A DNA stretch of 64,000 nt from Dehalococcoidia bacterium (GCA_965249275.1 CBDFLQ010000005.1:256001-320000), one strand, 5' to 3'. Shown: positions 3,860 through 32,193, counted from the first letter of the stretch. Translations and numbers: made by a program. The notes: generated from the sequence alone by a model not told the origin.

Positions 3860-4212
3860 CCACAAAGACAGTGAACGGGAATAGTAAGCCTCAAGCGGGG
3901 GCCAGAGAGTCGGGTTAGGTGTGAGCCGACCCCAGTGCAGAGGTTGAATGGGCCCGGGAGTCGCCAACCGAAACCCCGGTGTGAACCAGGAAAGTAGGCT
4001 TGGCCGGAGAGGGCACCGTTATCAGGGCCCAGGGTATCTCGTCGGGAGGCATCAGCGCCTTCCGGTGGACGTACCTGATCGAGATGTAGTCGGCTGACAA
4101 CCCCAAACGCCCCTTCTGCCGGGAGGATGGGTGAGTCAAACGGGTTGGGGCCGATCAAATTAGGGTGGCACCGCGAGAAACCCCCTCGCCCCTAAGGGCG
4201 AAGGGGTTTTTT
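3860..4212 (+). promoter_or_regulatory. T-box riboswitch, Trp specifier
   Basis: Stem I AGTA, AGAGAG and GGTG motifs; specifier GAA-TGG (TGG at 3949-3951); CCGTTATC stem IIA/B; T-box GGTGGCACCGCG at 4164-4175; lies directly upstream of trpE. Confidence 0.92.
4178..4212 (+). terminator. T-box intrinsic terminator
   Basis: AAACCCCCTCGCCC-CTAA-GGGCGAAGGGGTTTTTT hairpin with U tract. Confidence 0.85.
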
Positions 4213-14276: not shown

Positions 14277-14564
14277 CTAGACCTGAGCCTTGCGATCAAT
14301 CTCGGCCTTAGTTGCACGGTAGCTTGACTCCAGGTTAAGCCAGACTTGGGCTTTCAATCCGAGGACATTCTCCAAGGCGAGGGCTGATTCTCGGGTTATG
14401 GTTGTCTCGCCCGCAATGATGCCGTCGACAATTTCTACGGCGCACTCGAGACTTGAAGCTAATTCCGAGGGAGTCATTCTCCGGGCTTCTAGCTCTTCAG
14501 CCAGTAATTCTCCGGGGGGAATCGCTATATTGGAGCGCAAGCGGACTTTCTTCTCAGTCGCCAT
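14277..14564 (-). CDS. higA: HigA-family antitoxin (HTH)
   Basis: PPGELLAEEL, ITRESALAL, WLNLESSY. Confidence 0.85.
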   Translation of the reverse strand: MATEKKVRLRSNIAIPPGELLAEELEARRMTPSELASSLECAVEIVDGIIAGETTITRESALALENVLGLKAQVWLNLESSYRATKAEIDRKAQV

Positions 14565-14850
14565 AGTGTCTTGAAACCTCTACTACCCGGACTTCGTTAA
14601 CCGCCTCTTTTTCGACAATGAGTCGCCATCTATCGTGAATCGTTATCGCGAATTGGCCTGCCCGATTACCTCGTAGCGGGTGTAACCTGAGCGATCTGGC
14701 ATCATATAAGTCTTCCAAACGTTCGGTAGCATATAACAACTCTATCCTACCGACATATTTGCGTCCAGCTATATCGCCCCATGTGCGCCTTGCATGGTCT
14801 AAGTCTTCGAAACATCTTTGTAATTTGGCGGTTGAAAACCTGACTTCCAT
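14554..14850 (-). CDS. higB: HigB-family (RelE/ParE) toxin
   Basis: LHPLRGNRAGQFAITIHDRWRLI; toxin-first order, overlapping higA. Confidence 0.85.
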   Translation of the reverse strand: MEVRFSTAKLQRCFEDLDHARRTWGDIAGRKYVGRIELLYATERLEDLYDARSLRLHPLRGNRAGQFAITIHDRWRLIVEKEAVNEVRVVEVSRHYGD

Positions 14851-14873
14851 GACGGAGCTTTTAACATTGAGAA

Positions 14874-14893
14874 GGTGGCACCATAGTGTCACC
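14874..14893. promoter_or_regulatory. Imperfect palindrome upstream of higB, candidate HigA operator
   Basis: GGTGGCAC-CATA-GTGTCACC. Confidence 0.5.
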
Positions 14894-15046
14894 ATCTCTT
14901 AGTAAGCGAGACATTGTGATCGATACGGTGGCTCAGGCAATGGACGGAAAGACCCCTTTGGAGACCCTACAATCCCTCTAATTCTGTCAACGAATTACCT
15001 GACATCTACAGGAATGACGGAGGGGGCGGGTCTCGTTCCGTTTGAG

Positions 15047-16050
15047 TATTCAGTTGTGTGGGGTGAGGGTGGGGTTATTTGTCAGACGGGGACGGCTCCT
15101 TTCGGTGGTGGAGGGAAGGCGACCAGCCAGTCGGCCATACGTGGGAGGGAATGGGTTCACGCTTCCCGTAGGCGGACTTGCGACAGCCCAGGTTGAGCGG
15201 CAAAAGGGGATGGATTCCGGCTCGGGGGCCGGAAGGATGGAGTAAAGGGGCGGGAATGACGGAACGGGAGGGGGAGGGGATGGAAGGTCCCGGACGGTTG
15301 CGCAGGAAGACGGCGACGCCTGTACCGATGCGTGTTGTCCGCCACAGCGGATGTTCCACATTGGCGCCGGCTTTGCGACAGCCCCGTGCTTCTGAGAGGA
15401 TGTGGAGGAGACGCGAGGGAATCTCGGTGTGGGGCAGTCTCGACCACCAGAAGTGCCCGGCCATACGGAGATATGGGGGCGTGGACTCTCTGCCGTCGCT
15501 GTGTGGCATGGCCTCTCCGAGGGCAACGACGGTGGAGTCCGGTGAGGGGGAATTGCGCTCGGCCACTCGGAGGGGTGGTGGGAGCGGTGACTGACTGCCG
15601 TCGCCGGGTGAAAGGGGGTCTCCGAGAGGGACGACGGTGTAGTCCTGCAAGGGCGTGATGGCCCTTAGCCTGAGCCCGGGATATTTGGGCTCCTTGGATG
15701 CGCCGAGGGCGGATCCACTGCGCCCGGTGAGAGGGGCGCCTATCCGGCAGTTGCCTTTGGAAAGGGCAAGCCGTTTTTTGTCCGGGAACCTTCCATAGCC
15801 GGTCACGTAGACCGGGAGGGACAGTGATTGATCGCTGCGGAGGCGGAGGCGATGGGCCTTGGGGCAGCGCTTGTAGTGGGGGATGTGTAGTGGGACGGTG
15901 GGTGGAAAGGGGCAGGTGAAGAGGCGCGTGCCGGAAGCCGTGCGGTGCCATACCGTTCGGTTGCAACGGGGCCTATGAAGGCTGGTGCGACTCATGGGAC
16001 TCCTTTAGTCCTTTTCCTTATTAGGGCCGACGTTGGGAGTCGGGCCTGAG
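15047..16050 (-). ncRNA. Candidate large structured RNA, copy 1 (divergent)
   Basis: Shared promoter at 16055-16098; long-range arms 15781-15796 and 15280-15294; duplicated internal hairpins; C/A-rich tail. Confidence 0.4.
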
Positions 16051-16054
16051 GGGC

Positions 16055-16098
16055 AATATAGTACATGTGTTCAAGGCAAGTCAAGGGGTTAGTGTCAC
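16055..16098 (-). promoter_or_regulatory. Sigma70-type promoter with LexA-like box
   Basis: Minus strand GTGACAC-N7-TTGACT-N18-TATATT; the spacer contains GAAC-ACAT-GTAC. Confidence 0.65.
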
Positions 16099-16119
16099 AT
16101 TTGAGGGCGGGATGGGGAG

Positions 16120-16545
16120 GGAAGCCCCGCCCCAGATTCCTCGCGGGGCCTCGGAATGACGGGGGAGAAGGGGGTGGGTGGGTGGGGAGGGGTGTGACGG
16201 ATTGGTGGGGCGTGGGCCGCCCCCCGCTCGACCCTTCGAGTGCCTCAGGGTGAGCGGCCCCACGCCGCGGGATGGATTCGTGCCTCGGCGCTGGCATGAC
16301 GGAGTAAAGGGAGGGAGAGGGGACTGGACCCCACTCCCCAGATTCCTCGCGGGGTCTCGGAATGACAGTGTAAACGACCTCGCTTGGGAGTCAGGATAAC
16401 CACGACGGATTGGTAGTGCAGGGCCACCCCTCGCTCGACCCTTCGACATTGCTCAGGGTGAGCGGCCCCGTCCCTAGGGATGCCCTCGCCCCTACGCCGC
16501 GGGATGAATTCCGGCTCTCGGGGGCCGGAATGACGGAGGGGAGTG
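16120..16545. repeat. Cluster of REP-like palindromes (families A, B, C)
   Basis: Two cycles of AGATTCCTCGCGGGGCCTCGGAATGAC, GCTCGACCCTTCGA...CTCAGGGTGAGCGGCCC and GGATGGATTC...ATGAC. Confidence 0.85.
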
Positions 16546-16554
16546 GGGAGGGGT

Positions 16555-19452
<2,898 letters not shown>

Positions 19453-19644
19453 GGAATGCAGTCACCTAAACTAAGGGGGTCCGGGAGGCCGACGACAATT
19501 TTAGCATCGGGGTGGGGGGAGGGGAAAGGGTGTGTGCTCGTTCGGTAGATTAGTGACACACCGGGTTTTTATTCAGTTGTGGGGGGTGGGGTTTGATTGT
19601 TTTGGGGTTTCAGGCACGAGTTTGATTGTTTAAGGGGCGGGAAG

Positions 19645-19770
19645 GGAACCCTCACCCCCTTGATCCCCCTCTCCCTTAGGGCCTTCAAGGGAGAGGGGGA
19701 GAGAAGAACAGAGGCAGAGGTTGGCGCAGAAGCGCCAACCTCTGCCTCTAGTTCAATACTGGGGAGGGGA
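19645..19770. repeat. Two-hairpin repeat, family D
   Basis: GGGAACCCTCACCCCCTTGATCCCCCTCTCCCTT...AAGGGAGAGGGGGA followed by a second hairpin; first part near-identical to the copy at 31738. Confidence 0.8.
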
Positions 19771-19790
19771 TGACGGTGGGGAAGGAGTTG

Positions 19791-20385
19791 TTCAGTTGTT
19801 GGGTTTCGTTTTCCATTTTGTCTGTTGGGAAGGGGTAGGCGATGGAAGGTCCGGGACTCTTATGCAGGGGCGGGAGGCCGGCCTGCTCATCCCACTTGTG
19901 TTTTGTGAAGGCGGTACAGGGTGGAGAAAATCTCCCAGTGTGGGGGTTCCCCGTCCACCAGAAGGGCTCGATGGCCCTTGGAGCCCCGGGTTGCGGGGCT
20001 CATCCGATTCGCCGGCAAGTTCAATGCCGACCACGTAGTGCGCCCTGCAAGAAAGGCGCTGCATCTTTCGGCTGTTATGGCCCATCTCTTCGGCCCTTCC
20101 ATTAGGAGGGCCTGTGCCGGATAAAGAGGGGCTACATCGGCTGCGATGGCCCTTCCCTCAGGAGGGCCTGTGCCGGGTTGAGTCCAGGACATCTTCCATC
20201 GCCTGGGGATCAGGGAAGGGGCACGGGACCCGATGGGGATGAGGAGATGGCGACTGTCGCTTGTGCCGCGGGCCCCGTGTATGGGCCGTTGGGATGGGCT
20301 TAGACGTTGAGTCCTCGGGGCCGGGGCTGGTGTTCCCCCTGGGTTTTTGGTTCCTCCTTAAGGTAGTTAGGGTGATGTTCGAACG
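19791..20385 (-). ncRNA. Candidate large structured RNA, copy 2
   Basis: About 200 nt of 5' region alignable with copy 3; arms 20187-20204 and 19837-19852; serial hairpins; no credible ORF. Confidence 0.55.
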
Positions 20386-20391
20386 GTGAGG

Positions 20392-20435
20392 ATAATAGCA
20401 CGGAAGTTCTGGTCAGGTCAAGGGGGTGGTGTCAC
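20392..20435 (-). promoter_or_regulatory. Sigma70-type promoter with LexA-like box
   Basis: GTGACAC-N7-TTGACC-N18-TATTAT; the spacer contains GAAC-TTCC-GTGC. Confidence 0.65.
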
Positions 20436-20506
20436 ACTTTTTGGGGGGAGGGGAAAGGTGGGTGAAGTTCGATAGAGATGGTCGGTGGGGGTTCATTTCT
20501 ACAATC

Positions 20507-20761
20507 TCATGGACGTTGAACGGATCTCAGCCAACAACCTTCCGGAACATCAACCGAGTGTAGTGGAGAGGGAGGCGATATATGCAACCCCCCCTTTTCC
20601 ATTTCTTCCATCCAGTCCTGCATAGCGTCCCTGGCGTTGATCAGAGCATCTTCGACTGTGTAGCCCATGGCGACGCAGCCGGGGAGGTCGGGGAAGACAA
20701 CTCCGTAGGCGCCTTCACGACCATCCATGAGAGCAGGATAAGTTATGGGCCCAGCTTCCAT
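20507..20761 (-). CDS. HicB-family antitoxin-like protein (orphan)
   Basis: YGVVFPDLPGCVAMGYTVEDALINARDA; AGGAGG RBS. Confidence 0.8.
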   Translation of the reverse strand: MEAGPITYPALMDGREGAYGVVFPDLPGCVAMGYTVEDALINARDAMQDWMEEMEKGGLHISPPSPLHSVDVPEGCWLRSVQRP

Positions 20762-20912
20762 ATACAAACCTCCTATGATTTGTGGGACTTTGAGGACGAT
20801 ATTCTGATTGCATTCGTGCCTGTATCCTTGAACTTCGCAAGAATTTTCGTGGGGGCCGGGGTGGGGAGGCGGTTGAAGAGGAACGGGAAAAAGAGGTACA
20901 TGGGAATGGGAT

Positions 20913-20957
20913 ATTATAGGTGAGGGGTTCGGGGGTGGGTCAATGGGCCGGTGTCAC
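20913..20957 (-). promoter_or_regulatory. Sigma70-type promoter of the same architecture
   Basis: GTGACAC-N7-TTGACC-N19-TATAAT; only the GAAC half-site is present. Confidence 0.55.
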
Positions 20958-21002
20958 ACGGGACAGGGCGTTGCAGGTTAGACGAAAGACAAGGGGAGAA
21001 GC

Positions 21003-22154
21003 ATGAAAAACGGCGTGAAGGTATTTGATGCGGACATGCACATCATGGAGGACCTGAAGTTCGTGGAGTATATGGACCCGGAGTACCGGGACCGGGGCCC
21101 GAAAGCTGCCCCTGTCGACGAAAGCTTCCCGGACTTCACGGGGTCTACTCTAGAAGGGAAAGCGTTGTCGGGGCCCGCGCACATCTATCCCACCCCCGAG
21201 ATGAGACCGGGAGCAGCCTTGTCCAGACGCTCCTTTGCCGAAGGCATGGCCAAATATGTCGAGGGCCGGGCCGACGGGTTTGGGCCCAAGTCACAGATGC
21301 TGGCCCTGGATACCGAGGGGATAGACATCGCGGCACTCTATCCTTCTTCCACGATATTGAGCTTTCCCACACCCAAAACCGACGGCCTCGATCCGAAGCT
21401 GTCGGCGGCGATATGCCGGGGTTACAACGACTGGCTGACGGACTTCTGCTCGATAGACAGCGCGAGGTTGAAGGGTGTCGCGGCTACGCCTATTCATGAC
21501 GTGGAGGAGTCGGTGATCGAGATCAATCGGGCGGTGAAAGAAAACTCGATGGTCGCGGCATACATACGGCCCAACGTGATAAACGGCCGCAACCTTCACG
21601 ATGCCTACTACGATCCTCTCTATTCGACGCTGGAAGAGCTGAATATCCCGCTGGTGGTACACGAAGGAACGGCGGGCGGGCCGCCGGGCGCCGACCAGCG
21701 GTTCCTGGGCAACTGGGTGATGATGCACATGGCCGCTCATCCGCTGGAGCAGATGCTTGGCAGCGAGAGCATAGTGGTGGGAGGGGTGCTGGAGAGGCAC
21801 CCGAAGCTTAGAGTTGCGTTTCTGGAGTGCGGGTGCAGCTGGCTGGTCTACTGGCTGTGGAGACTGGACGAGGAGCTGGAAGCGTGGGGCTGGCACGAGG
21901 TGCCGTGGTTGAAGAAGAAGCCCAGCGAATATTTCATGGAGCAGTGCTGGGTGTCGATGGAAGGGGACGAGCCGGGGGCAAAGTACTACGTGGAGATGCG
22001 TGGGAATGACAGGCTGCTATGGGCGTCGGACTATCCTCACCCGGATGCCGGTTACCCGAATGCGACAGAGGAGTTCCTGGGTTTGGACGCGATATCCGAG
22101 GAGACAAAGAGGAAGGTGCTGTGGGACAACCCGATGGCGTTTTACGGGTTTTAG
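21003..22154 (+). CDS. Amidohydrolase family 2 protein
   Basis: DADMH, VVHE, HPKLRVAFLECG, WASDYPH. Confidence 0.9.
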   Translation: MKNGVKVFDADMHIMEDLKFVEYMDPEYRDRGPKAAPVDESFPDFTGSTLEGKALSGPAHIYPTPEMRPGAALSRRSFAEGMAKYVEGRADGFGPKSQMLALDTEGIDIAALYPSSTILSFPTPKTDGLDPKLSAAICRGYNDWLTDFCSIDSARLKGVAATPIHDVEESVIEINRAVKENSMVAAYIRPNVINGRNLHDAYYDPLYSTLEELNIPLVVHEGTAGGPPGADQRFLGNWVMMHMAAHPLEQMLGSESIVVGGVLERHPKLRVAFLECGCSWLVYWLWRLDEELEAWGWHEVPWLKKKPSEYFMEQCWVSMEGDEPGAKYYVEMRGNDRLLWASDYPHPDAGYPNATEEFLGLDAISEETKRKVLWDNPMAFYGF

Positions 22155-22232
22155 GGGGGAGCTTCAGGAACCTAGAAGTTAAAACGCGGAATTGATGATC
22201 ATGCCCTTACAAACGTCTACAGGACACCGAAA

Positions 22233-24155
22233 ATGAAAATAAGCACGATATTAAACCAGATAGATGCCGGAGCCATCGCACTACCGGTATTTCAGAGAGG
22301 TTACGTCTGGAATCGAGACCAAGTGAGAGGGTTGATGACATCCCTTTATAAGCGGCATCCTGTCGGCAGCCTGCTTACGTGGATCACTCGAACTGAAAAT
22401 GCAGATGCAAGGGGGGAGGGCCCTTTGCAGGCGGGATACGTAAAGCTGATTTTAGATGGACAGCAGCGTATAACCTCCCTATACGGAATTGACCGAGGAC
22501 ACGCGCCCCCCTTCTTTGAGGGAAACCCCGCGACGTTTACCGGTTTGTATTTCAACTTCATTAAGGAGGAATTCCAGTTCTACGCACCCATCCGGATGAG
22601 TCAGGAGGTCGGTTGGGTCAGCGTGACAGAGTTAATGCAAAAGAGCATAGACCCCTTTATTGAGATAATTCAGGCCGATCCGAGCCTTGCAGGCCAATTA
22701 GGAACATACATTGGAAGACTGAACAAGATTTTCACTATTGGCGACATTGAACTACACGCTGAAGACGTTACGGGCGAGGATAAATCCGTGGACGACGTAG
22801 TGGAGATATTCAATCGAGTCAACAGCGGTGGCACAAAACTGACCAAAGGTGACCTCGCACTGGCAAAGATATGCGCAGCCTGGCCAGATGCCCGCAAAGA
22901 AATGAACGCCCGACTGGACAAATGGGGGAAAGCCGGATTCTATTTCAGTCTCGATTGGCTTCTTCGTTGTGTAAATAGCCTAGTCACAGGGGAGGCTCTC
23001 TTTGCAGCTCTCGACAAAGTCAGCGCCGTAGCCATTCAAGAAGGGTTGAAGAGGAGTGAAAAACATATCGACTATTTGCTCAACTTGATTGCATCAAGGC
23101 TCGGTCTTGACCACAGCCGCGTCCTCAAGAGCGTTTTTGCTTTCCCGTTGATGATTAAATATCTGGACAAAAGGGGTGGAACCTTAGCCAATCACAAGGA
23201 GCGAGACCGGTTGTTGTACTGGTACATTCACACTCTGCTGTGGGGTCGCTATTCCACTTCCACCGAAACAGTATTGAATCAAGACCTGGAAGCCATTGAG
23301 AATATAGAAGGAGGTCTCGATAGACTTGTGGCGGGGCTTCGCCGGGATAGGGGCGACCTCACAGTTACACCTGTTGATTTCGATCAATGGAGCATGGGAT
23401 CCCGCTTTTACCCGCTGCTTTACATGCTAACGCGGGTTAGTCATGCGAGGGATTGGGATACCGGAATCGAGTTATCCAGCAATCTACTGGGCATACACAG
23501 CAATCTCGAGTTGCACCATATTTTCCCTAAGGCAAGGCTGTATGAAGCGGGGTACGCCAAAGCCGAGGTGAACGCTTTAGCGAACTTCACTTTCTTGACC
23601 AAGGAAACCAACCTTAAGGTATGGGCCAGGTATCCTTCCGAATACATACCGGCCTTCCTCGAACAGTATCCCGGCGCAATTGAGTCTCACTGGATACCAA
23701 TGGACCCGGAGCTTTGGGAAATCGAAAACTACCCCAAGTTCCTGGAAGCAAGGCGAGCATTGCTGGCGAATGCTACTAACGACCTCCTTCGCGGTCTATA
23801 TGAAGGATCAGCGCCGGAAGGCGTTGTCGTTCCGATGGGAGGAATTGCGGGTAAGGAAGAAGAGCAAGTGCTCCTCGACATCAATATATGGATCAGTGAA
23901 CTAGGCCTTCCCGAAGGTGAATTCGGCTACGAAGTTACAGACATGGCAACCGGCGAACTGCTGGCGACTCTAGATCTGGCATGGCCGAACGGTATGCAGG
24001 AAGGATACAGTCAACCGGTAGCCTTGCTGATCGACGAGCCTGAAGAAGTGTGGCACCGCGCTAGCCACGCCGGATTTCGCGCATTCACGGATGTGGAATC
24101 CATTAAAGCCTACGTGGACGATGAAATCTTGAGAGTGAAAGAGTCAGCGGCGTAA
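22233..24155 (+). CDS. DUF262 + HNH (GmrSD-like) putative modification-dependent restriction endonuclease
   Basis: LPVFQRGYVW, DGQQR, FNRVNSGGTKL, LELHHIFPK...NALANFTFL. Confidence 0.82.
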   Translation: MKISTILNQIDAGAIALPVFQRGYVWNRDQVRGLMTSLYKRHPVGSLLTWITRTENADARGEGPLQAGYVKLILDGQQRITSLYGIDRGHAPPFFEGNPATFTGLYFNFIKEEFQFYAPIRMSQEVGWVSVTELMQKSIDPFIEIIQADPSLAGQLGTYIGRLNKIFTIGDIELHAEDVTGEDKSVDDVVEIFNRVNSGGTKLTKGDLALAKICAAWPDARKEMNARLDKWGKAGFYFSLDWLLRCVNSLVTGEALFAALDKVSAVAIQEGLKRSEKHIDYLLNLIASRLGLDHSRVLKSVFAFPLMIKYLDKRGGTLANHKERDRLLYWYIHTLLWGRYSTSTETVLNQDLEAIENIEGGLDRLVAGLRRDRGDLTVTPVDFDQWSMGSRFYPLLYMLTRVSHARDWDTGIELSSNLLGIHSNLELHHIFPKARLYEAGYAKAEVNALANFTFLTKETNLKVWARYPSEYIPAFLEQYPGAIESHWIPMDPELWEIENYPKFLEARRALLANATNDLLRGLYEGSAPEGVVVPMGGIAGKEEEQVLLDINIWISELGLPEGEFGYEVTDMATGELLATLDLAWPNGMQEGYSQPVALLIDEPEEVWHRASHAGFRAFTDVESIKAYVDDEILRVKESAA

Positions 24156-24187
24156 GGGTCTTTGCCCCTAACTAGCCCTGTTGTCGA

Positions 24188-25495
24188 CTAAAGCTTGAGC
24201 AGGGACTCCAGCCTTTTGCGGGCGCGGGTGGGGCCTACTACTGTTAGGTTGAGTTTTTCGGTGCGGAGGAGGGTATCGGTGACGCGGCGGACGTCCTCCA
24301 GGGTGACGGCGTCGACGCGGCGGACGACTTCGTCGATCATCAGGACCTGGCCGGTGACCATCTCCTGGGCGCCAAACCAACCGGCCACGCTACGGGTGTC
24401 CTCGGTGCGGAGGAGCAGGCGGCCTTTGACCAGCTCTTTGGACTTTTCGAGCTCAGACTCGGTGATGCCCTCTTTGAGCTTCTGAAGCTCGTTCATTATG
24501 CCGGCGAGGGTCTCGTTGGTGCGGGAGGGGTCGACGCCCGCGGCTACGCAGAGAGTGCCGCAGTCCAGGTAGTGGTTGTTGTAGCTGTAAACATTGTAGG
24601 TCAACCCCCGGTTCTCCCTCAACTCAACGAAGAGCCGGCTGCTCATGCCATCTCCGAGGACGACGTTCAGAAGGTCAAGCGCGTAGCGGTCCGGGTGGTT
24701 GACGGCCAGGCCCCTGACGGCGAGGCTCAAGTGGACCTGCTCAATCTTCCGGTACTCGACGTGCAGCCTCGGGGAGTTCTGATCGTCGGGGGCTGGGGTA
24801 AAGGTGCGAGGCTCGACGGGCTGCCAACCGTTCAGGCGGGAGGCAAGGGCCTCGACAACCTCGTCATGGTCCACTGCCCCTGCGACGGAGACCACCGTGT
24901 TGTTCGGCGAGTAGTGGGCGGTGAAGTAATTTAGGAGCTGGTCACGGGTGATGGAGTTAATCGAGTCTCGGGTCCCGCCGATGTCCCTTCCCAAGGGGTG
25001 ATCGGGCCAGACGATCTGGTCGAGCAGTACCTCCCCCCACTGGTTGGGGGCGTCCTTGACCATGTTCAGTTCTTCGAGGATGACGCGTCGTTCTTTCTCG
25101 ATGTCCTCGGAGTCGAAGCGGGAGTTGCGGAGCATGTCGACGAGGAGGTCAAGGGCCTCGGGAAAGTGGGGAAGGGCAACCTTGGCCCAGTAGGTGGTTA
25201 CTTCCTGGTCGGTGCTGCCATTGAGAGAGCCACCTACGCCCTCGACGGGCTCGGATATCTGCTGAGGCAGGCGCCGCTTCTCTGTTCCCTTAAAGCAAAG
25301 GTGCTCGATGAAGTGGGAGATGCCAGCTTCGTTGTCGGCTTCGTATCGGGACCCGGTGCCAACGAGGATTATCATGCTCGCCGAGCGGGTGTGGGGCATG
25401 TTGCAGGTTATGATCCTCAGACCCGAGTCCAGGGTGGTCTTTCGGTAGGTCTGGTCGGCGACGGAGGGGGCGGTTTGAGTTTCAGCCAAGGGCAT
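24188..25495 (-). CDS. M16 family zinc peptidase
   Basis: HFIEH (HxxEH), SSRLFVELRENRGL. Confidence 0.93.
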   Translation of the reverse strand: MPLAETQTAPSVADQTYRKTTLDSGLRIITCNMPHTRSASMIILVGTGSRYEADNEAGISHFIEHLCFKGTEKRRLPQQISEPVEGVGGSLNGSTDQEVTTYWAKVALPHFPEALDLLVDMLRNSRFDSEDIEKERRVILEELNMVKDAPNQWGEVLLDQIVWPDHPLGRDIGGTRDSINSITRDQLLNYFTAHYSPNNTVVSVAGAVDHDEVVEALASRLNGWQPVEPRTFTPAPDDQNSPRLHVEYRKIEQVHLSLAVRGLAVNHPDRYALDLLNVVLGDGMSSRLFVELRENRGLTYNVYSYNNHYLDCGTLCVAAGVDPSRTNETLAGIMNELQKLKEGITESELEKSKELVKGRLLLRTEDTRSVAGWFGAQEMVTGQVLMIDEVVRRVDAVTLEDVRRVTDTLLRTEKLNLTVVGPTRARKRLESLLKL

Positions 25496-25559
25496 CTAGG
25501 AACCTCCAGAAGTGTGCCGAGGCACGGGTCCGCGGGAATGGTGGGGGCGGATTTACCAT

Positions 25560-25715
25560 CGTGGGCCACCCCCCGCTCGACCCTTCGACGGGGCTCAGGG
25601 TGAGCGGCCCTGTCACGGGGAATGGGATCACCCTCACTCTAGCCCCCTCCCATCGAGGGAGAGGGAACAGGAGGGAGCCCCGCCCCAGATCCCTCGCAGG
25701 GCCTCGGGATGACAG
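25560..25715. repeat. REP-like cluster (families B, D, A)
   Basis: Same palindromic units as at 16.1-16.5 kb. Confidence 0.8.
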
Positions 25716-25734
25716 GGACGACAGGGCGCCGGGA

Positions 25735-26373
25735 TCAAGAGTCCCAGGAGACGTGGCCGTGGATGTCGTCAGGGTGGGAGCGTGACTTGAAGCCGGCGTG
25801 GAGGCGTTTGCCCTCACTGAGGATGCCTTCTTCACCGTGGCCCGGGTAGATGTTTGTGTCGTCGTCCAGGACGAGGAGTTTGCTCTCGACATTACCGAGA
25901 AGTTGCTGGAAGTTCTCGGGGCTGGTGGTGTAGCCGGGACCACCGGGGAAAAGGGTGTCGCCGCTGAAAAGGTGCTTGCCCCAGATAAGGGAAGTTGCGC
26001 CGGGGGTGTGGCCGGGGTTGTGGATGGTCCTGAATGTGATATTCCCGAAGGAGAAGGCACCCTCGTCTTCCAAGTGCTTATCAGCCTTGACGGGAAGCTC
26101 GCCTTCGTCGTCAGGGTGGACTACCAGAGGCACGCCGAGGGCGTCCTTGAGGGTCTGGGCGCCATCGATGTGGTCGAAGTGGGTGTGAGTGAATAGTACG
26201 GCCTGGACGTTGGTGTCCTTGGCCTGATCGAGGACGCGCTCGGGCTCGGCGGGGGCGTCGATGATTACGCTCTCGTTGGTCTTGGGACAGACGACGAGGT
26301 AAGCGTTGTTTTCGTAGTCGCCAGTGACGATCTTCCTGATCTCGATATCTTCGTCCTTGTGCAGTACGGCCAT
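25735..26373 (-). CDS. MBL-fold metallo-hydrolase
   Basis: THTHFDH, PGHTPG, GD, PGHG. Confidence 0.92.
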   Translation of the reverse strand: MAVLHKDEDIEIRKIVTGDYENNAYLVVCPKTNESVIIDAPAEPERVLDQAKDTNVQAVLFTHTHFDHIDGAQTLKDALGVPLVVHPDDEGELPVKADKHLEDEGAFSFGNITFRTIHNPGHTPGATSLIWGKHLFSGDTLFPGGPGYTTSPENFQQLLGNVESKLLVLDDDTNIYPGHGEEGILSEGKRLHAGFKSRSHPDDIHGHVSWDS

Positions 26374-26479
26374 GATGTCCTCCAGAGGCGGCGTGTGCGG
26401 TGGTCAAGGGGTGGTGGTTGTGGGAGAAAGCTTAGCAAATGGGGGGTGGGGGTGCAATGGGGTAGAGGGGTGGGGACAA

Positions 26480-26827
26480 CCCCCAGCCCCAGATTCCTCG
26501 CGGGGCTTCGGAATGACAGAGAACGAGACGCCAGAGGGGTTGAGCGGATTTGACGTATTGGCAGTGCGGGGCCACCCCCCGCTCGACCCTTCGACTTGGC
26601 TCAGGGTGAGCGGCCCCTCACAGGGAGGGCGACCACGGGTGTTGCCTGTAGGGCGGAGAGGTGCGTTGGGAGCCAGGATTCCCGATCGGGGGCCGGAACT
26701 ACGGAAGGGTGGGGGTTAAGCGGATTTGACGTATTGGCAGTGCGGGGCCGCCCGCCGCTCGACCCTTCGATTTGGCTCAGGGTGAGCGGCCCCTCCCCAC
26801 GGGATGGATTCCCGATCGGGGCGGGGG
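26480..26827. repeat. REP-like cluster with an internal direct duplication of about 80 bp
   Basis: AGCGGATTTGACGTATTGGCAGTGCGGGGCC...GCTCAGGGTGAGCGGCCCCTC at about 26543 and 26719. Confidence 0.85.
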
Positions 26828-27796
26828 TTAGAGGAGGGGGGCGACCTTGTTGGCCATGAGGTCCATCTGGTGCATGAGGGTGTCGTGGGGTTCGACGCCG
26901 TGGCGGACGAAGTCAAAGACGAAGTGGTCGAGTCCCGCGTCCAGGTAGTTTGAAATGCGCTCGGCGCTCTGTTCCGGTGAGCCGGCAACGGTGACGCTGG
27001 TCGTGTCCACGGCGTACTCCAGGTCCATGAGGCCCGAGAAGTATTCTTCGATCTCGGAGTCCGACATTTCTCTGCCATCGGTGACTGTGGAGTAGATCCA
27101 GGCGCTGACCTTGGCCCTCCGGCCCCATTTGCCGATGGGGGCTTCGCCGAGGCGAGGAAGGTATACGTCGCTTAGCTCGTCGAAGGTGGGCCAAGGTGGA
27201 TTGATGTACTCGCAGTAGCGTGCGGCGCGTGGGATGGACACTGAGCGGCCACCCCACCAGATGGGTGGATAGGGCTTCTGGACGGGTTTCGGCTCCATGG
27301 AAACGCCGTTTAGCTTGTAGAACTGGCCGTCGTAGGTGACTTCGTCCTCGGTCCAGAGGCGGGTAATGATTTCGAGCTGCTCGTCGGCGATGGCGCCACG
27401 TTTCCGTCGGTCGGCGCCCACGGCGTGGAAGGCTTCATCGACCATGCCAAGGCACATCCCTACTATGACCCTGCCGTTGGATATGACGTCCAGACTGGCG
27501 AAATACTTGGCCCAGTCAAAGGGAGGGAGATAGGGGAGGGGAATGGAATCGACGGCAATCCTGATTTTGGAAGTGGCAGCAATGATGGCGGGAAGGAGGA
27601 CACGGGCGTCGAGGATGCTCTTGTTGCCGAAGCGGCCAAAGGGGCCAGCGTCGGGGATGGCGTTCATCAGGGGGACGTTGACGGAGTAGAAGCCGAGCTT
27701 CTCGGCGTACTGGGCGGCCTCCACAACCTCGGTCATGGTCGGGGGTTTGCGGCCCCACGGGAAGACGGCGACGCTGAAGTGGTCCATGATGGGCAT
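26828..27796 (-). CDS. LLM-class flavin-dependent oxidoreductase
   Basis: AEKLGF, SLDVISNGR, PKPVQKPYPPIW. Confidence 0.9.
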   Translation of the reverse strand: MPIMDHFSVAVFPWGRKPPTMTEVVEAAQYAEKLGFYSVNVPLMNAIPDAGPFGRFGNKSILDARVLLPAIIAATSKIRIAVDSIPLPYLPPFDWAKYFASLDVISNGRVIVGMCLGMVDEAFHAVGADRRKRGAIADEQLEIITRLWTEDEVTYDGQFYKLNGVSMEPKPVQKPYPPIWWGGRSVSIPRAARYCEYINPPWPTFDELSDVYLPRLGEAPIGKWGRRAKVSAWIYSTVTDGREMSDSEIEEYFSGLMDLEYAVDTTSVTVAGSPEQSAERISNYLDAGLDHFVFDFVRHGVEPHDTLMHQMDLMANKVAPLL

Positions 27797-27954
27797 GTGG
27801 ATTTGCCTCCGGGCTTGTTTATTAGGGGGAGTATATCAGGAGGGATGGAATGGGACGCGTGAGTGGTATGAAGAAGTTCAGGGATACTGTGAGAGTAAGT
27901 GTTATGATCTGGCGACCGAATTTTGAATTGTTCATGTATTTCGAAAGGTGAAAA

Positions 27955-28293
27955 ATGGGAAAGTACGTAGCGCTCTATTACTCATCGCCTGAGGTTATGG
28001 AGTCGATGAAGAATGCCTCTCCGGAGGACATGCAGGAAGGCATTAAGTCCTGGATGGCCTGGGGCCAAAAGTGCGGGGACGGCATCGTCGACTTTGGCTC
28101 GCCGCTAGGGGGTGGGATGAAAGTTGGGAAGTCGAGAAGCTCGCCGAGCGGCAGCGGTGTGATGATGTACTCGATTTTGCAGGCGGAGAGTATGGAAGGG
28201 GCGCTGGCCCTTGTGCAGGACCACCCGCACTTGAGTTGGCCGGGCGACGGCGAGATCGAAGTTTACGAGTGCATGAATCTCCCGCCTATGTAG
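27955..28293 (+). CDS. YciI-like small protein
   Basis: WMAW, GSPL, YSILQAESMEGA, HPHL, IEVYE. Confidence 0.6.
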   Translation: MGKYVALYYSSPEVMESMKNASPEDMQEGIKSWMAWGQKCGDGIVDFGSPLGGGMKVGKSRSSPSGSGVMMYSILQAESMEGALALVQDHPHLSWPGDGEIEVYECMNLPPM

Positions 28294-28377
28294 GAGCGCG
28301 CTCCGAAGTCCTACCTCAACACATTCAGGGCCCTCTTAGTTACTCCGCGGGCTCGTGTCCCATCCCCCCTGAATAAA

Positions 28378-28414
28378 GAAACGTGGGAAACTGCTAAGCA
28401 GTTTCCCACGTTTC
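28378..28414. terminator. Long inverted repeat between convergent genes
   Basis: GAAACGTGGGAAACTGCT-A-AGCAGTTTCCCACGTTTC. Confidence 0.6.
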
Positions 28415-28448
28415 ATATATTTAAGAGCGGCAAGGCCCTTCGCACCTG

Positions 28449-30884
28449 CTAAGCCACTATATTCACCAGCCGACCCGGTACGTAGACGACTTTCCGAGGG
28501 CCGTTCTTCATGAAGGCCCTTATTCGCTCGCTGGATAGGGCTATTTTCTTCGCCTCTTCCTCGGTGATGCCCGCCGAGACGGTCACCCGGTCTCTGACCT
28601 TGCCGTTGACCTGCACAACGAGGGTGACCTCTTCCTCTGCGGCGAGGGCATCGTCCCATTGGGGGAAGGGTTGATTGTGAATGCTGTATTCGTAGTCTTT
28701 TGCGGCCCACAACTCCTCGGAGAGGTGGGGGGCGGTTGGGGCGAGCATCAGCAACAACGCCCTTATCGACTCTCTCCAAGTCTCCCCGTCCACCGACCCT
28801 TCATCCAGGGCTCGGGCGAGGTGGTTGGTGAACTCCATCAGCGAGGCTAGTGCAGTGTTGAAATGGAACCGATCCAGGTCCTGGTGCACCTTCCTGGTTG
28901 TCTTGTGCAGCATGTGAATCGTCTGCTTCGACGACTTACCCTGCCTCAATTCCGGGTCGTCACGTTCCGCCAGATCCCAGACCCGGTTGTACCAACGCAC
29001 TATCCCGTTTATCCCCTGGTCGACCCACTCTCCACCCTGGTCCCACGGCCCGATGAACATCAGGTATCCGCGAACGACGTCGGCGCCTACGGTGTCGACG
29101 TACTCATCTGGCGTGATGACGTTGCCCCGGGACTTACTCATCTTCTGCCTGTCGCTGATGATAATGCCCTGGTTGTAGAGCCTGACGAAGGGCTCGTCGA
29201 AGTCCAGCAAGCCGATATCCCGCAGGGCCTTGACGAAGAAGCGGGCGTAGAGGAGGTGCATTACCGCGTGCTCGGCGCCGCCGGTGTACTGGTCGACGGG
29301 CAGCCAGTGCTTGATCTCCTCGGGTTTGAAAGCCGAGTCCCCGGAGTTGGGGGAAGCGTACTTTAAGAAGTACCAGGAGGAGCACATGAATGTGTCCATG
29401 GTGTCGGTCTCCCGGCGAGCCGGGCCTCCACACTCGGGGCAGGTCGTATTCACAAACTCTTCGTGGAAGGTGAGAGGAGACTCTCCCGTGGGCCTGAACT
29501 CGGCGTCCTCCGGTAGCAGCACCGGAAGTTGGTCCTCGGGGATGGGGACTATGCCACAAGCATTGCAGTAGACCATGGGTATCGGGGCTCCCCAATACCG
29601 CTGGCGGGATATGAGCCAATCACGGATACGGTAAGAGACTGTGCCGCCACCGATGCCCTGCTCCTCCAAGGCTCTTGTAACCGCCTGCTTCCCATCTTCA
29701 TTCCCAAGGCCCACGAACTGTCCTGAGTTGACCATCTCGCCGGATCCCGTATAGGCCTCCACAAGGTCCTCGCCGCTCCATCCAGGCGGAGCGATTACCG
29801 TCCTTATGGGCAGGTCATATTTCTTGGCGTAGGCGAAGTCCCGGGTGTCGTGGGCGGGGACGCCCATGACGGCACCAGTGCCGTAGGTGAGGAGTGCGTA
29901 GTCGGCGATGAAGATGGGGACCTTCTCGCCGTTCAGCCGGTTGGTGCAGTAGGCTCCGATGAATACTCCCGTCTTCTCCTTGTCCGTAGCAAGCCGCTCA
30001 ATCTCGGAGCGCCGCCTCGTTTCCTCGACGTAGGCTTGCACCTCTTCCTTTTTGTCAGGAGTAGTGAGCTGGGCAACAAGCGGATGCTCTGGGGCGAGAA
30101 CCATGAAAGTCACGCCGAACACGGTGTCGGGGCGGGTGGTGAAGACCCGTATTTCTTTTTCTTCCAGCCCATACTCCTCGATGCTGAATGAGATCTCGGC
30201 ACCCTGGCTGCGGCCAATCCAGTTGGACTGCATTGTATTTATGCGGTCGGGCCACTGGATGCTGCTGAAGTCGAGGAGTTCGTCGGCGTACTTTGTGATC
30301 CTGAAGAACCACTGCTCGAGGTCTCTCCTGGTCACCGAGGCACTACAACGCTCGCAGGTACCGTCGGGGAGGACTTGCTCGTTTGCTAGGGTGGTCTGGC
30401 AGGTCGGGCACCAATTGGCCGGGGCCTTGTTCCGGTACGCGAGCCCTGCGTGGAACAGCTTGAGGAAAAGCCACTGAGTCCACTTGTAGTAATCTGGCAG
30501 GGATGTCACGACCTCACGGTCCCAGTCGTATACAGCGCCGATACGCTTGAGCTGGCGGCGCATGTTCTCGACGTTGCGCATGGTCCACAAATGGGGATGA
30601 ATGCCGTTCTTGATGGCGGCATTCTCGGCCGGGAGTCCGAAGGCGTCGAAGCCCATGGGGTGGAGAACGTTGTAGCCCTGCATGCGCTTGAAACGGGCGT
30701 GGACGTCCGCGGGGGCCATGGCGTACCAGTGGCCGATGTGCAGGTTCCCGGAGGTGTACGGGAACATGGTCAGCTCATACCACTTGGGCTTGTCGGGGTC
30801 TTCCTGGACGCGGTACAGCCGGTCCTCAATCCACCTCTGCTGCCACTTGGTCTCTATTGCAGACGGGTCGTATCTGAGGGGCAT
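28449..30884 (-). CDS. leuS: Leucine--tRNA ligase
   Basis: MFPYTSGNLHIGH, KMSKS, CP1 editing motif FTTRPDT, SRQRYWG. Confidence 0.97.
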   Translation of the reverse strand: MPLRYDPSAIETKWQQRWIEDRLYRVQEDPDKPKWYELTMFPYTSGNLHIGHWYAMAPADVHARFKRMQGYNVLHPMGFDAFGLPAENAAIKNGIHPHLWTMRNVENMRRQLKRIGAVYDWDREVVTSLPDYYKWTQWLFLKLFHAGLAYRNKAPANWCPTCQTTLANEQVLPDGTCERCSASVTRRDLEQWFFRITKYADELLDFSSIQWPDRINTMQSNWIGRSQGAEISFSIEEYGLEEKEIRVFTTRPDTVFGVTFMVLAPEHPLVAQLTTPDKKEEVQAYVEETRRRSEIERLATDKEKTGVFIGAYCTNRLNGEKVPIFIADYALLTYGTGAVMGVPAHDTRDFAYAKKYDLPIRTVIAPPGWSGEDLVEAYTGSGEMVNSGQFVGLGNEDGKQAVTRALEEQGIGGGTVSYRIRDWLISRQRYWGAPIPMVYCNACGIVPIPEDQLPVLLPEDAEFRPTGESPLTFHEEFVNTTCPECGGPARRETDTMDTFMCSSWYFLKYASPNSGDSAFKPEEIKHWLPVDQYTGGAEHAVMHLLYARFFVKALRDIGLLDFDEPFVRLYNQGIIISDRQKMSKSRGNVITPDEYVDTVGADVVRGYLMFIGPWDQGGEWVDQGINGIVRWYNRVWDLAERDDPELRQGKSSKQTIHMLHKTTRKVHQDLDRFHFNTALASLMEFTNHLARALDEGSVDGETWRESIRALLLMLAPTAPHLSEELWAAKDYEYSIHNQPFPQWDDALAAEEEVTLVVQVNGKVRDRVTVSAGITEEEAKKIALSSERIRAFMKNGPRKVVYVPGRLVNIVA

Positions 30885-30999
30885 TAAACTGTCCGTTCTC
30901 CTAAGTGCGAATCCTCCCGACAATCGCAAAAGCTACCACGGGGGGCGGGGGGGCGCAAGGATGGGCACTCGGTCGGTAGGGTAGTGGCCACCGGGTTTT

Positions 31000-31657
31000 C
31001 TTCAGTCCTCCTGAGGCGGATCTTCGATTGTGGGGTTTGGGTTTTGGTTTCGGTTTGATTTGTTTGGGAGGGGGCAGGCGATGGAAGGTCCGGGACTAGA
31101 AACCAGGCCGGGGGTAGCTGCCGAGCCGTCGGCGCCGGGCTGGATTATCCCCACACGTTGCCGGCTGTGGTCAGGGTTGTGTGGGGCAGATCCCAAATCG
31201 TGAGCGGCACATGACCGGACCGCTGACGTGGAAGATGCCGCCTGAGGCGGTCTTTCAGAACCGGCGTCCCGGTGCATCCGCCGGGTAGACGGGTGGCAGG
31301 GACGGCGGGACAAACAAGGACACGAGGGCCTTGCTAAACCGGGGGTCGGTTGACCTACCGGGAAAACCGGCGCGCAATGGGCCGGGGTAAACGCACCCGA
31401 TGATGGGGGGCGTTGAATCGGCAGGGGCGTCCTTGGACGGGGCCTGCCGAGCAGAGTCTGTGGACATTCCATCGCCTGGAAGTAGGGGAAGGGATAGCCG
31501 GGGCCCTTGTAAAGAGGAGATGGCGGCGTTTGCTTGAGCCGCAGGCCGCGAGACGACCATTGGGATGGGCTGGGACGTTGAGTCCTCGGGTGGGTCGGGT
31601 GGGCTTCCCCCTAGGTTTTTGGTTCCTCCTTGAGATAGTTAGGGTGGTGTTCGAACG
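31000..31657 (-). ncRNA. Candidate large structured RNA, copy 3
   Basis: Homologous to copy 2 at both ends; arms 31462-31478 and 31075-31091; different hairpin-rich interior. Confidence 0.55.
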
Positions 31658-31663
31658 GTGGGG

Positions 31664-31707
31664 ATAGTAGCACGGGTGTTCAGGTAGAGTCAAGGGGTTC
31701 GTGTCAC
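31664..31707 (-). promoter_or_regulatory. Sigma70-type promoter with LexA-like box
   Basis: GTGACAC-N7-TTGACT-N18-TACTAT; the spacer contains GAAC-ACCC-GTGC. Confidence 0.65.
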
Positions 31708-31737
31708 ACTTGGGGGGACACCGCCCCAGCCCCACAG

Positions 31738-31895
31738 GGGAACCCTCACCCCCTTGATCCCCCTCTCCCTTAGGGCCATTAAGGGAGAGGGGGAAATAAG
31801 AATAGAGGTCCACGTGCGTGCCCTGCACGCACGTGGACCTCTAATTCAGTACTTGGGGGAGGGGGATGGATTCCCGATCGGGGTCGGGAATGACG
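31738..31895. repeat. Family D two-hairpin repeat plus a family C unit
   Basis: Matches 19645-19770. Confidence 0.8.
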
Positions 31896-32193
31896 GGGAG
31901 TGGGGGAAGGTTGACGGGTGTCGGGGGTGGGGATAGGGTGGGGGGTTAGGGGCCATAAGCATAGGATATATGCTGGCCACAATAACTACCCATCACTCTA
32001 TCAAAAGGGAATATTATTCTCGGATTTTAGAAAGCCAATCCCGTATCTTCTGTTCCATTACTGGATCTGGAGGCTGACTAAACAATTCTAGGTAGGGACG
32101 TTATTTTATGTTAATCACCGAACCCTCCACACTTGGTGAAACCCGCTCCCGGCTACTAACCCCGTCTCCCCACAAATAGCGAAGGTAAGAACG

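Follow-up and report, generated by a model that had tools for sequence, protein, structure and literature searches.

Genus-restricted elements with transposon-like ends, a strong promoter and a predicted structured RNA cargo lie in register with host promoters in a Dehalococcoidia bacterium

What kind of genetic element occupies the three large intergenic blocks that lie between positions 15,047 and 31,707 of a 64,000-nucleotide stretch of a Dehalococcoidia bacterium (GCA_965249275.1, CBDFLQ010000005.1:256001-320000; the whole stretch is hereafter the window)? In the initial annotation, the blocks (about 15047-16100, 19791-20435 and 31000-31707, here copies 1, 2 and 3) were taken to be a three-copy family of structured RNAs with a conserved closing helix and a variable interior, or else long leaders of higB, uvrA and leuS, which lie downstream on the same strand. 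We have read all three blocks on the minus strand, with window positions throughout, in the source genome (G000, a 2.9-Mb assembly that is 87% complete) and in sister species of the genus (G001 to G005 and others). Our analysis indicates that the blocks are most likely copies of genus-restricted, high-copy, non-autonomous DNA transposons of 0.75-1.1 kb, whose cargo is a promoter-driven structured non-coding RNA; this degree of confidence applies to the identity of the element and not to the function of the RNA.

The blocks belong to families far larger than the three copies first counted. A search with the 5' segment of copy 3 locates 53 sites in the genome at which both arms of the closing helix, GGCGATGGAAG and CTTCCATCGCC, are present at a distance of 300-530 nt; copies 2 and 3 are members of this family 1 (53 copies), whereas copy 1 and its 12 paralogs make up a sister family 2 (13 copies). 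Most of the features reported earlier were confirmed, including all six arm coordinates on the minus strand, namely 15796-15781/15294-15280 in copy 1 (5' arm ATGGAAGGTTCCCGGA, 3' arm TCCGGGACCTTCCAT), 20203-20187/19852-19838 in copy 2 (GGCGATGGAAGATGTCC, with a 2-nt bulge, and GGACCTTCCATCGCC) and 31476-31462/31091-31077 in copy 3 (GGCGATGGAATGTCC and again GGACCTTCCATCGCC). The 5' segment is indeed alignable between copies 2 and 3 (77% identity over 292 columns), and what copy 1 has in common with them is limited to the arm core ATGGAAGG/CCTTCCAT, the promoter and short motifs. C/A-rich tails ending in ACTGAA were likewise seen in each block, with the exact hexamer in 40 of the 53 copies and a tail base composition of A 0.38, C 0.40, G 0.13 and T 0.08. 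A covariance model of the 5' domain gave 23-71 matches per genome in 9/9 genomes of the genus, no matches in three other genera of the family (3/3) and none in 146 other genomes of the class (110 other genera); blastn was concordant, placing the family in 8/8 sister genomes and in 0/32 others.

The ends of the elements speak for mobility. Complete copies open with TGATCCCGTTCAC... and close with ...CTACCGAACGAGTACA; these termini are inverted repeats of ~30 bp, imperfect and tipped by TG...CA. Comparison of the left consensus TGATCCCGTTCACATAGAGGGGTGACATCACC with the reverse-complemented right consensus TGTACTCGTTCGGTAGGTTAGTGACACACC gave a score of 7, which 1 in 2000 shuffles reached. Copies with the outer left end begin TGATCCCGTTCACATAGAG, and pairing each of them with the nearest right end yielded 17 units of 738-1198 bp, ten of which are flanked by perfect 5-bp direct repeats (chance 1 in 1024 each), with the qualification that one of the ten duplicated pairs may be a single locus assembled twice (contigs C4 and C7). 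The elements extend past the block limits first proposed, reaching 30964 in copy 3 and 19533 in copy 2, and as whole units they span 15020-16100 (copy 1), 19533-20438 (copy 2, right end at C5 498324) and 30964-31710 (copy 3).

Empty sites in sister species are in keeping with these limits. The leuS site is empty in G001, where the sequence ...ggggcatcccc runs directly into ATCCTTGCA..., and the element is present in the eight other genomes, each of which gives its junctions; the uvrA site lacks the element in G003; and at the locus of copy 1 an element is present in G000 and G003 but not in G001, G002 or G005. At the empty uvrA site of G003 (L053 ~2280-2330, gene orientation) we noticed a solo promoter of the element type (GTGACATCAGCCCATTGAC ... 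TATAAT) with no RNA domain behind it, lying ~200 nt upstream of the uvrA promoter. As regards mobility, then, the transposon or MITE (a miniature transposable element with inverted repeats) against which the initial annotation had set its RNA family is what we found, and the structured RNA persists as the cargo of the element. Among the open reading frames (ORFs) on both strands of the three copies, 10/10 were unmatched in Pfam at E <= 1, and no transposase gene lies inside. Since complete copies, at the lengths given above, are not of miniature size, we have filed them as large non-autonomous elements, closer to mobile insertion cassettes (MICs), and not as MITEs in the strict sense. Inversion of an internal switch was also considered: 0 of 541 matching interior segments lay in the opposite orientation, which rules out an inverton, that is, an invertible promoter switch. 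Given the same Pfam result for ORFs of both strands, the idea that these copies derive from an opposite-strand phage terminase gene is not supported.

An alternative to transposition is that the blocks are ordinary, immobile paralogous RNA genes multiplied by duplication or recombination. That most copies are without one or both terminal repeats, and that their modules appear shuffled as by gene conversion, would fit such genes; however, the 5-bp duplications at 10 of the 17 complete copies, the precise empty sites in sister species, the exact register with -35 boxes described below and the presence of 23-71 copies per genome with none outside the genus would not, and we consider immobile RNA genes extremely improbable.

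The placement of the elements is as regular as their ends. Exactly 5 bp separate the right end from the -35 hexamer of a host promoter downstream, and this promoter is left intact. In copy 3 the right terminal-repeat module (..CCCGGTGGCCACTACCCTACCGACCGAGTGCC, 30964-31000) is followed by CATCC at 30963-30959 and then by the leuS -35 box TTGCGC at 30958-30953; in copy 2 a second tail with the right terminal repeat (..ACTGAATAAAAACCCGGTGTGTCACTAATCTACCGAACGAGCACA, 19533-19620) is followed by CACCC and the uvrA promoter (TTTCCC ... TGCTAAAAT). Across the genome, a -35-like hexamer (at least 4/6 TTGACA bases at +6..+11) is found at 16 of 25 right ends as against 3.1% of random positions, TAnnnT at 16-18 nt spacing in 21 of 25, and both together in 13 of 25 (random 0.03%). 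Because the spacers vary among copies and these promoters are found by themselves where the element is missing, we attribute these -35 and -10 boxes to the host and not to the element.

This arrangement bears directly on the proposal that the RNA is a cis-acting long leader or regulator, forming the 5' untranslated region of higB, uvrA, leuS and other genes. The elements do lie immediately upstream of genes, and a crude ORF caller finds 39 of 53 copies co-oriented with the long ORF that comes next; the interval between copy 3 and leuS holds no intrinsic terminator, and the leuS site is occupied in 8 of the 9 genomes of the genus. However, the host -35/-10 starts downstream of the element, 5 bp past its terminal repeat, and is solitary at the empty sites of G001 and G003; the remaining 14 of 53 copies are not co-oriented; a terminator with a 19-bp stem separates copy 2 from uvrA; and neither a riboswitch nor a leader was matched in Rfam. 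The downstream ORFs tested were ordinary genes of unrelated functions in 10/10 cases, among them amidohydrolases, luciferase-like monooxygenases, a class I Glu/Gln-tRNA synthetase and FAD synthetase. With the host promoter downstream of the element and the downstream genes unrelated, a leader of higB, uvrA and leuS in particular is therefore excluded, and the initial suggestion to that effect is left unsupported; cis-acting leaders in the wider sense we regard as unlikely, also in view of the finding, described next, that one and the same site holds different interior types in different species, which would not be expected of a gene-specific sensor.

The copies are built from modules. Three kinds of left end and leader can be told apart by eye, and a motif count assigns 47 of the 53 copies to them and leaves 6. 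The common core runs in the order AAGGAGGAAC ... GAGGACTCAACG ... AGCCCATCCCAA, a variable hairpin, CGGCxCAAGC ... CGCCATCTCCTC ... CTTCCC and the 5' arm. The interiors were described earlier as differing in sequence and packed with hairpins, which holds. They are not unique: 10 interior types account for the 52 copies that could be typed, copy 3 being one of the 13 members of type 0 and copy 2 one of the 2 members of type 6. The tails hold 0, 1 or 2 modules of the TCCGCCTCTGGAGGA kind and end in GGTGTGTCACTAAnCTACCGAACGAGTACA in 24 of the 53 copies. One 22-nt module, GGAACATCCGCCTCTGGAGGA (window 31006-31021, minus strand), has 44 matches in the genome, 29 within elements and 15 elsewhere; it sits in tails and sometimes in the 5' domain, and behaves like a small insertion or repeat unit. 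At the leuS site the interior is of type 0 in G000 and G002, type 1 in G003 and type 5 in G005, and at the uvrA site it is of types 6, 9, 4 and 2 in G000, G002, G001 and G004, respectively. As G000, G002 and G005 have site-specific right-end variants in common at leuS although the interior of G005 is of another type, replacement of the interior by recombination between copies is favored over fresh insertion, and we surmise that interiors may be exchanged like cassettes in this manner.

That the cargo is an RNA is suggested, to begin with, by its promoter. A near-consensus promoter of the sigma-70 type lies just inside the left end and is aimed at the host gene. The minus-strand promoters put forward earlier turned out to be the three best promoter-like sites within 14800-32100: TTGACC/TATTAT at 20421-20392 in copy 2 (10/12), TTGACT/TATATT at 16084-16055 in copy 1 (10/12) and, in copy 3, TTGACT with an 18-nt spacer (by the scan) and TACTAT preceded by TG at 31693-31664 (9/12). 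Transcripts would start near 20385, 16048 and 31657, respectively. The predicted C-rich RNA of ~0.6-0.7 kb consists of a conserved 5' domain of ~170 nt, a closing helix of 13 bp, one of at least 10 interiors and the C/A-rich tail, which is unstructured. Its minus-strand fold has z-scores of -3.7 in copy 3 and -2.9 in copy 2 (plus strand of copy 3, -1.6), and the closing helix is present in both of these minus-strand minimum-free-energy folds.

Comparison among copies points in the same direction. The 13-bp closing helix is paired in 96.4% of cells (39 sequences from 9 genomes) and in 44-65% when the partner is slid by 1-3 columns, these slide controls standing in for a phylogeny-aware significance and being approximate; the whole-element MAFFT alignment is not structural in the variable parts and was used for this helix and for the pairing of Shine-Dalgarno (SD) and anti-SD-like motifs only. 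Three pairs of the helix are altered on both sides and five on one side, all to G-U; beyond the invariant core the helix is extended by type-specific complements (GGUCC/GGACC, GACGC/GCGUC); and the arm variants of the 53 copies comprise 22 cells that are G-U-compatible on the promoter strand vs. 3 that are so only on the other strand. The variable hairpin after AGCCCAUCCCAA has 32 distinct sequences, and in 31 of them a hairpin with 4 bp or more arises at an identical offset. In 38 5' domains, RNAalifold gave 25 pairs, 6 with compensatory change, including the long-range GGGAA/UUCCC, and left the SD-like AAGGAGGA unpaired in the consensus fold; the interior types show 0-10 compensated pairs each, with non-pairing cells at 0.2-4%. 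In family 1 this SD-like site is followed by no start codon, and there is no consistently open frame. Taken together, the compensatory and strand-specific G-U changes support selection at the level of the RNA, as far as aligned copies can tell. The earlier description of a paralogous family of promoter-driven, heavily paired minus-strand RNAs of ~0.6-1 kb without an Rfam match is supported in substance. At the gathering score an Rfam scan of the window left the blocks unmatched, and a permissive scan (E <= 5, 14800-32100) returned 12 sub-threshold chance matches and nothing relevant. The window's only Rfam family is a T-box leader on the plus strand at 3862-4196 (100.7 bits vs. a gathering score of 93).

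Contigs of RNA libraries from two studies match the interiors closely. On the interior of copy 3 (31094-31459) they carry 3 differences per piece of 94-166 nt, on that of copy 1 (15510-15742) 2 differences in 233 and on that of copy 2 (20068-20220) 5 in 153; among the contig pieces listed, those on neighboring genes are only ~90-93% alike. The RNA runs with element sequence include libraries labelled 'sponge metagenome', and stretches free of contigs (e.g. 20510-25317, runs X1 and X4) carry no meaning. Summed contig depth in the RNA libraries peaks in the bin 25318-25918 (85 in X2, 163 in X3). Its loose ends at ~25628 and ~25665, together with joints to 15206-15225 and 31064, suggest a short dispersed repeat and not a gene.

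Pairing between the arms might alternatively act in single-stranded DNA during transposition or recombination, as do the ends of IS200/IS605 elements or integron attC sites. In favor of this, the arms are nearly invariant in sequence, beyond what pairing requires, the interiors behave as cassettes between them, and G-T wobble is tolerated in DNA hairpins. However, a near-consensus promoter is aimed into the structure in every copy, RNA-library contigs lie on the interiors, the elements have ends and a 5-bp duplication of the DDE (rve) type, and the interior segments are never inverted. Elements of the DDE (rve) type act on double-stranded DNA. We consider a role of the pairing in single-stranded DNA highly improbable, and keep to an RNA cargo within a DDE-type element.

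The sister family that includes copy 1 raises a further question, namely whether a protein is made. The earlier statement that the ORFs of the blocks are not homologous holds no longer for copy 1, whose frame of 306 codons (15075-16005, spanning the RNA, with SD AAGGAG at 16005-16000 and ATG at 15995-15993) is open in 13/13 family members. All 13 retain the SD, the ATG and a frame of 216-365 codons; this frame has 0 stops in 3637 codons, the two other frames having 71 and 58, most of them at places peculiar to single copies, and indels are mostly multiples of three. In addition, 385 database ORFs match it (E <= 0.001), having been deposited by gene callers as hypothetical proteins, a count that is biased, as proteins get called from open frames only. 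These data would agree with a basic, proline- and arginine-rich disordered protein, at least in family 2. However, the ratio of nonsynonymous to synonymous change (dN/dS) is 0.91 in this frame vs. 0.89 and 0.81 in the two control frames, differences are spread evenly over codon positions (2107, 2093 and 1987), and the 306-residue product has no Pfam match. AlphaFold2, given 69 family 2 homologs, returned no secondary structure, with a mean predicted local distance difference score (pLDDT) of 50.4 and a predicted template-modeling score (pTM) of 0.14. The same sequence also holds the RNA arms and hairpins, and family 1 has neither a start codon after its SD-like site nor a consistently open frame. 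Judged by these patterns of constraint, the frame is not protein-like, and a coding function appears quite unlikely. On the simplest reading, selection in family 2 acts on the open frame, meaning on translation through the RNA, and not on the protein.

The elements would be moved in trans, probably by one of the IS481-family transposases that abound in these genomes. The source genome has 22 integrase-core (rve) matches, which include three aligned groups with defined ends (2, 8 and 11 members); one representative of each group had its best match in the IS481 family, that of group C being below the curated cut-off. Insertion sequences (ISs) of group C, with 11 aligned copies in the genome (e.g. 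L075:170-1132), are ~1056 bp long, have the tips TGTAAG.../...CTACA (TGT...ACA), and are inserted in hairpins that resemble repetitive extragenic palindromes (REPs), GTCATTCC...GGAATC, where 5 bp, ATTCC, are duplicated. Between the left end of group C and the right end of our elements, 23 columns are identical, a value reached in 0/2000 shuffles. The transposase that moves the elements may locate promoters via an inner repeat motif (GTGACA/TTGACA) resembling the -35 box. As for a regulatory relation between the RNA and the transposases, an antisense or sponge RNA against transposase mRNAs was discarded: apart from flanking repeats that are shared, conserved complementarity to the three IS481-type elements was not found.

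What the RNA does for the element is less certain than what the element is. It is possible, and we favor it only tentatively, that the unit is a self-contained expression cassette which makes insertion tolerable. In such a cassette the strong promoter would supply transcription toward the host gene; the SD-like AAGGAGGA would bind a 30S subunit and thereby shield the 5' end from RNase J; the closing helix would keep the fold from interfering with downstream sequence; and the C-rich, G-poor tail (the G fraction given above) would let Rho end the untranslated RNA, or would act as a linker. In its base composition the tail resembles a Rho loading site. RNase J was found in 3/3 genomes tested and Rho in 8/8 sister genomes, as one copy of 450-453 residues each. 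That the RNA is needed for the spread of the element itself seems to us doubtful, and what probability remains falls to a host-level trans-acting RNA or to something else. One specific form of involvement in spread would be an RNA-assisted DDE transposon, whose own transcript tethers an IS481-type transposase, acting in trans, to promoters or guides it there; the -35 box that adjoins every complete copy starts with (G/C)TTGA, to which two hairpin loops invariant throughout the genus, UCAAC (in GGACUCAACGUCC) and UCAAG (in CGGCUCAAGCG), are complementary, and the invariant closing helix would then bound an exchangeable specificity or cargo domain. We consider this very unlikely. A sponge for a CsrA-type protein was rejected: GGA is enriched (812 vs. 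458 +/- 17 in shuffled sequence) but CsrA was not found in 5/5 genomes.

A number of observations weigh against our reading of the blocks as transposons with an RNA cargo, or against parts of it. With respect to mobility, the outer left repeat is found in only 15 of the 53 copies and the right-repeat module in 24 of 53, so that most copies do not have both bounding repeats, including the left sides of copies 2 and 3, where no duplication is visible, and 7 of the 17 end pairs show no perfect duplication. With respect to placement, there are the 14 of 53 copies that, according to the crude ORF caller, are not co-oriented with the next long ORF. As for the RNA, only 14 of the 32 variable-hairpin sequences clearly beat their shuffles; G-T wobble is tolerated in single-stranded DNA too, and strand bias alone is no proof of RNA; those parts of the closing helix and of the SD and anti-SD-like motifs that never vary are uninformative on pairing; and the RNA contigs carry no strand, ends or depth ranking and could stem from DNA carry-over. 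As for the mover, the likeness to group C is significant in one of four end comparisons only, no pair of left and right ends in this genome encloses a transposase, and the end motifs of the element occur at none of the 12 transposase loci of the genus that were inspected. As for the role of the tail and promoter, Rho, sought by its RNA-binding domain, was not found in the 87% complete G000 assembly, which is probably an assembly gap, and copy 2 has a strong terminator hairpin ahead of uvrA, arguing against read-through at that site.

Copy 3 (family 1, left-end type a) carries its conserved 5' domain at 31477-31657 (178 bits with covariance model R1), within which are the start-less SD-like AAGGAGGA at 31631-31624, GAGGACTCAACG at 31587-31576, the variable hairpin at about 31559-31543 and CATCTCCTC at 31522-31514; its multi-hairpin interior of type 0 occupies 31092-31461, and the C/A-rich tail, 31001-31076, has one ATCCGCCTCAGGAGGA module (31021-31006) and its ACTGAA at 31006-31001. 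Copy 2 (family 1, left-end type a) has a first C/A-rich tail at 19791-19837, with ACTGAA at 19796-19791, and other repeats nested in the tail at about 19790-19620. Part of a different repeat nested there is a hairpin resembling an intrinsic terminator (19709-19750, the stem of 19 bp being followed by TTCTTCTCTC), which would terminate the transcript of copy 2 at ~685 nt from its start. Hairpins of this kind form a second repeat family, seen on the minus strand at 19635-19750 and 31740-31843, in which the 19-bp-stem terminator-like hairpin is followed by CTCCCCCTCTCCCTT..CCCTAAGGGAGAGGGGGATCAAGGGGGTGAGGGTT. It abuts the upstream side of several elements, abuts the leuS promoter in G001 without an element, and is the insertion target of the group B IS481-like element.

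The surroundings of copy 1 contain other repeats. Between copy 1 and the HigB-like ORF, at about 14860-15000, lies an IS481-like remnant of group C, with its right end on the minus strand. The ORF taken as higB (14554-14895, minus strand) matches the Pfam HigB-like_toxin family at 24.7 bits, under the cut-off of 27, and the adjoining ORF of 95 residues (14277-14564) has no Pfam match. On the other side, between copy 1 and the end of uvrA, there is a cluster of REP-like palindromes on the minus strand (16130-16550; GTCATTCCGrGGCCCCGCGAGGAATC and variants), and units of this type are the insertion targets of group C elsewhere in the genome.

Among described systems, the promoter-bearing MITEs come closest, the Correia elements of Neisseria foremost, as far as the passages of a review describe them (PMC10969869). 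According to those passages, Correia elements are non-autonomous MITEs with terminal inverted repeats and target duplications that occur in many copies, mostly just upstream of genes; MITEs of this type carry sigma-70-like promoters and their transcripts fold stably; and some MITEs yield small RNAs, as do QMITE1/2 of Coxiella (PMC10969869). Our elements have these terminal repeats, duplications, copy numbers and upstream positions in common with the Correia MITEs, as well as the sigma-70-like promoter and a transcript predicted to fold stably. They differ in that: 1) they measure 0.75-1.1 kb and are GC-rich, whereas MITEs measure ~0.1-0.3 kb and are AT-rich; 2) the typical MITE fold is a pairing of the ends, whereas here there is a multi-domain RNA with a 170-nt 5' domain, an invariant helix and exchangeable interiors; and 3) the exact 5-bp register with the -35 box is not reported for MITEs in the passages of that review (PMC10969869). 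It is thus in size, cargo and insertion register that our elements differ from promoter-bearing MITEs.

Each of several other systems has some of these traits. MICs consist of IS terminal repeats around passenger genes and are moved in trans; they have in common with our elements IS-type ends around a cargo that is not a transposase, but their cargo consists of protein genes, whereas here it is an RNA gene with its promoter at a far higher copy number. The IS481 elements of group C are alike in the TGT...ACA tips, the 5-bp duplication, one similar end and very specific targets, but our elements have no transposase, and group C targets ATTCC in REP-like hairpins and not promoters. HEARO/IscB, the omega RNAs of TnpB (IS200/IS605) and the bridge RNA of IS110 are structured RNAs of mobile elements for which ORF-less copies are known. 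Our RNA resembles them as a predicted transcribed, structured RNA encoded by a mobile element, but it has no Rfam match (HEARO included), its ends are of the DDE type and no partner nuclease or recombinase adjoins it; we do not claim a guide role. The large RNAs OLE, ROOL, GOLLD and raiA are similar in size, intricate fold and possession of a promoter, but they are widespread, number one or few in each genome and are not known to have transposon ends at their borders, in contrast to the dozens of mosaic copies in a single genus seen here. The STAB-SD of Bacillus thuringiensis cry3A is a strong SD-like sequence near the 5' end of an mRNA that stabilizes it without a start codon; a start-less strong SD-like site near the 5' end is present here too, in a host with RNase J, but it heads a predicted non-coding RNA, and the sister family has a real SD and ATG at the same position. 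Pneumococcal BOX elements are modular mosaic repeats with variably repeated sub-units. Our elements are likewise modular, with interchangeable and variably repeated sub-units, but their modules are much larger and include a promoter.

The family was not described in full-text searches of the literature, which covered articles without their supplementary files. If our reading is correct, one genus has >1% of its genome in the form of a transposon that carries only a strong promoter and a folded RNA of 0.6-0.7 kb. The single-base register of insertion calls for a mechanistic look at how the -35 box is recognized by a DDE transposase or by its RNA, for which there are few bacterial parallels; were the RNA-assisted mechanism true, the element would be a self-propagating, promoter-homing RNA gene, which has not been described for this transposase superfamily. 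Family 2 could be a clean case of selection for translation itself, e.g. for shielding the RNA from Rho or nucleases. The exchangeable interiors amount to a natural experiment in the exchange of RNA domains, and with dozens of diverged paralogs in each genome the fold of this large RNA may be solved without cultivation.

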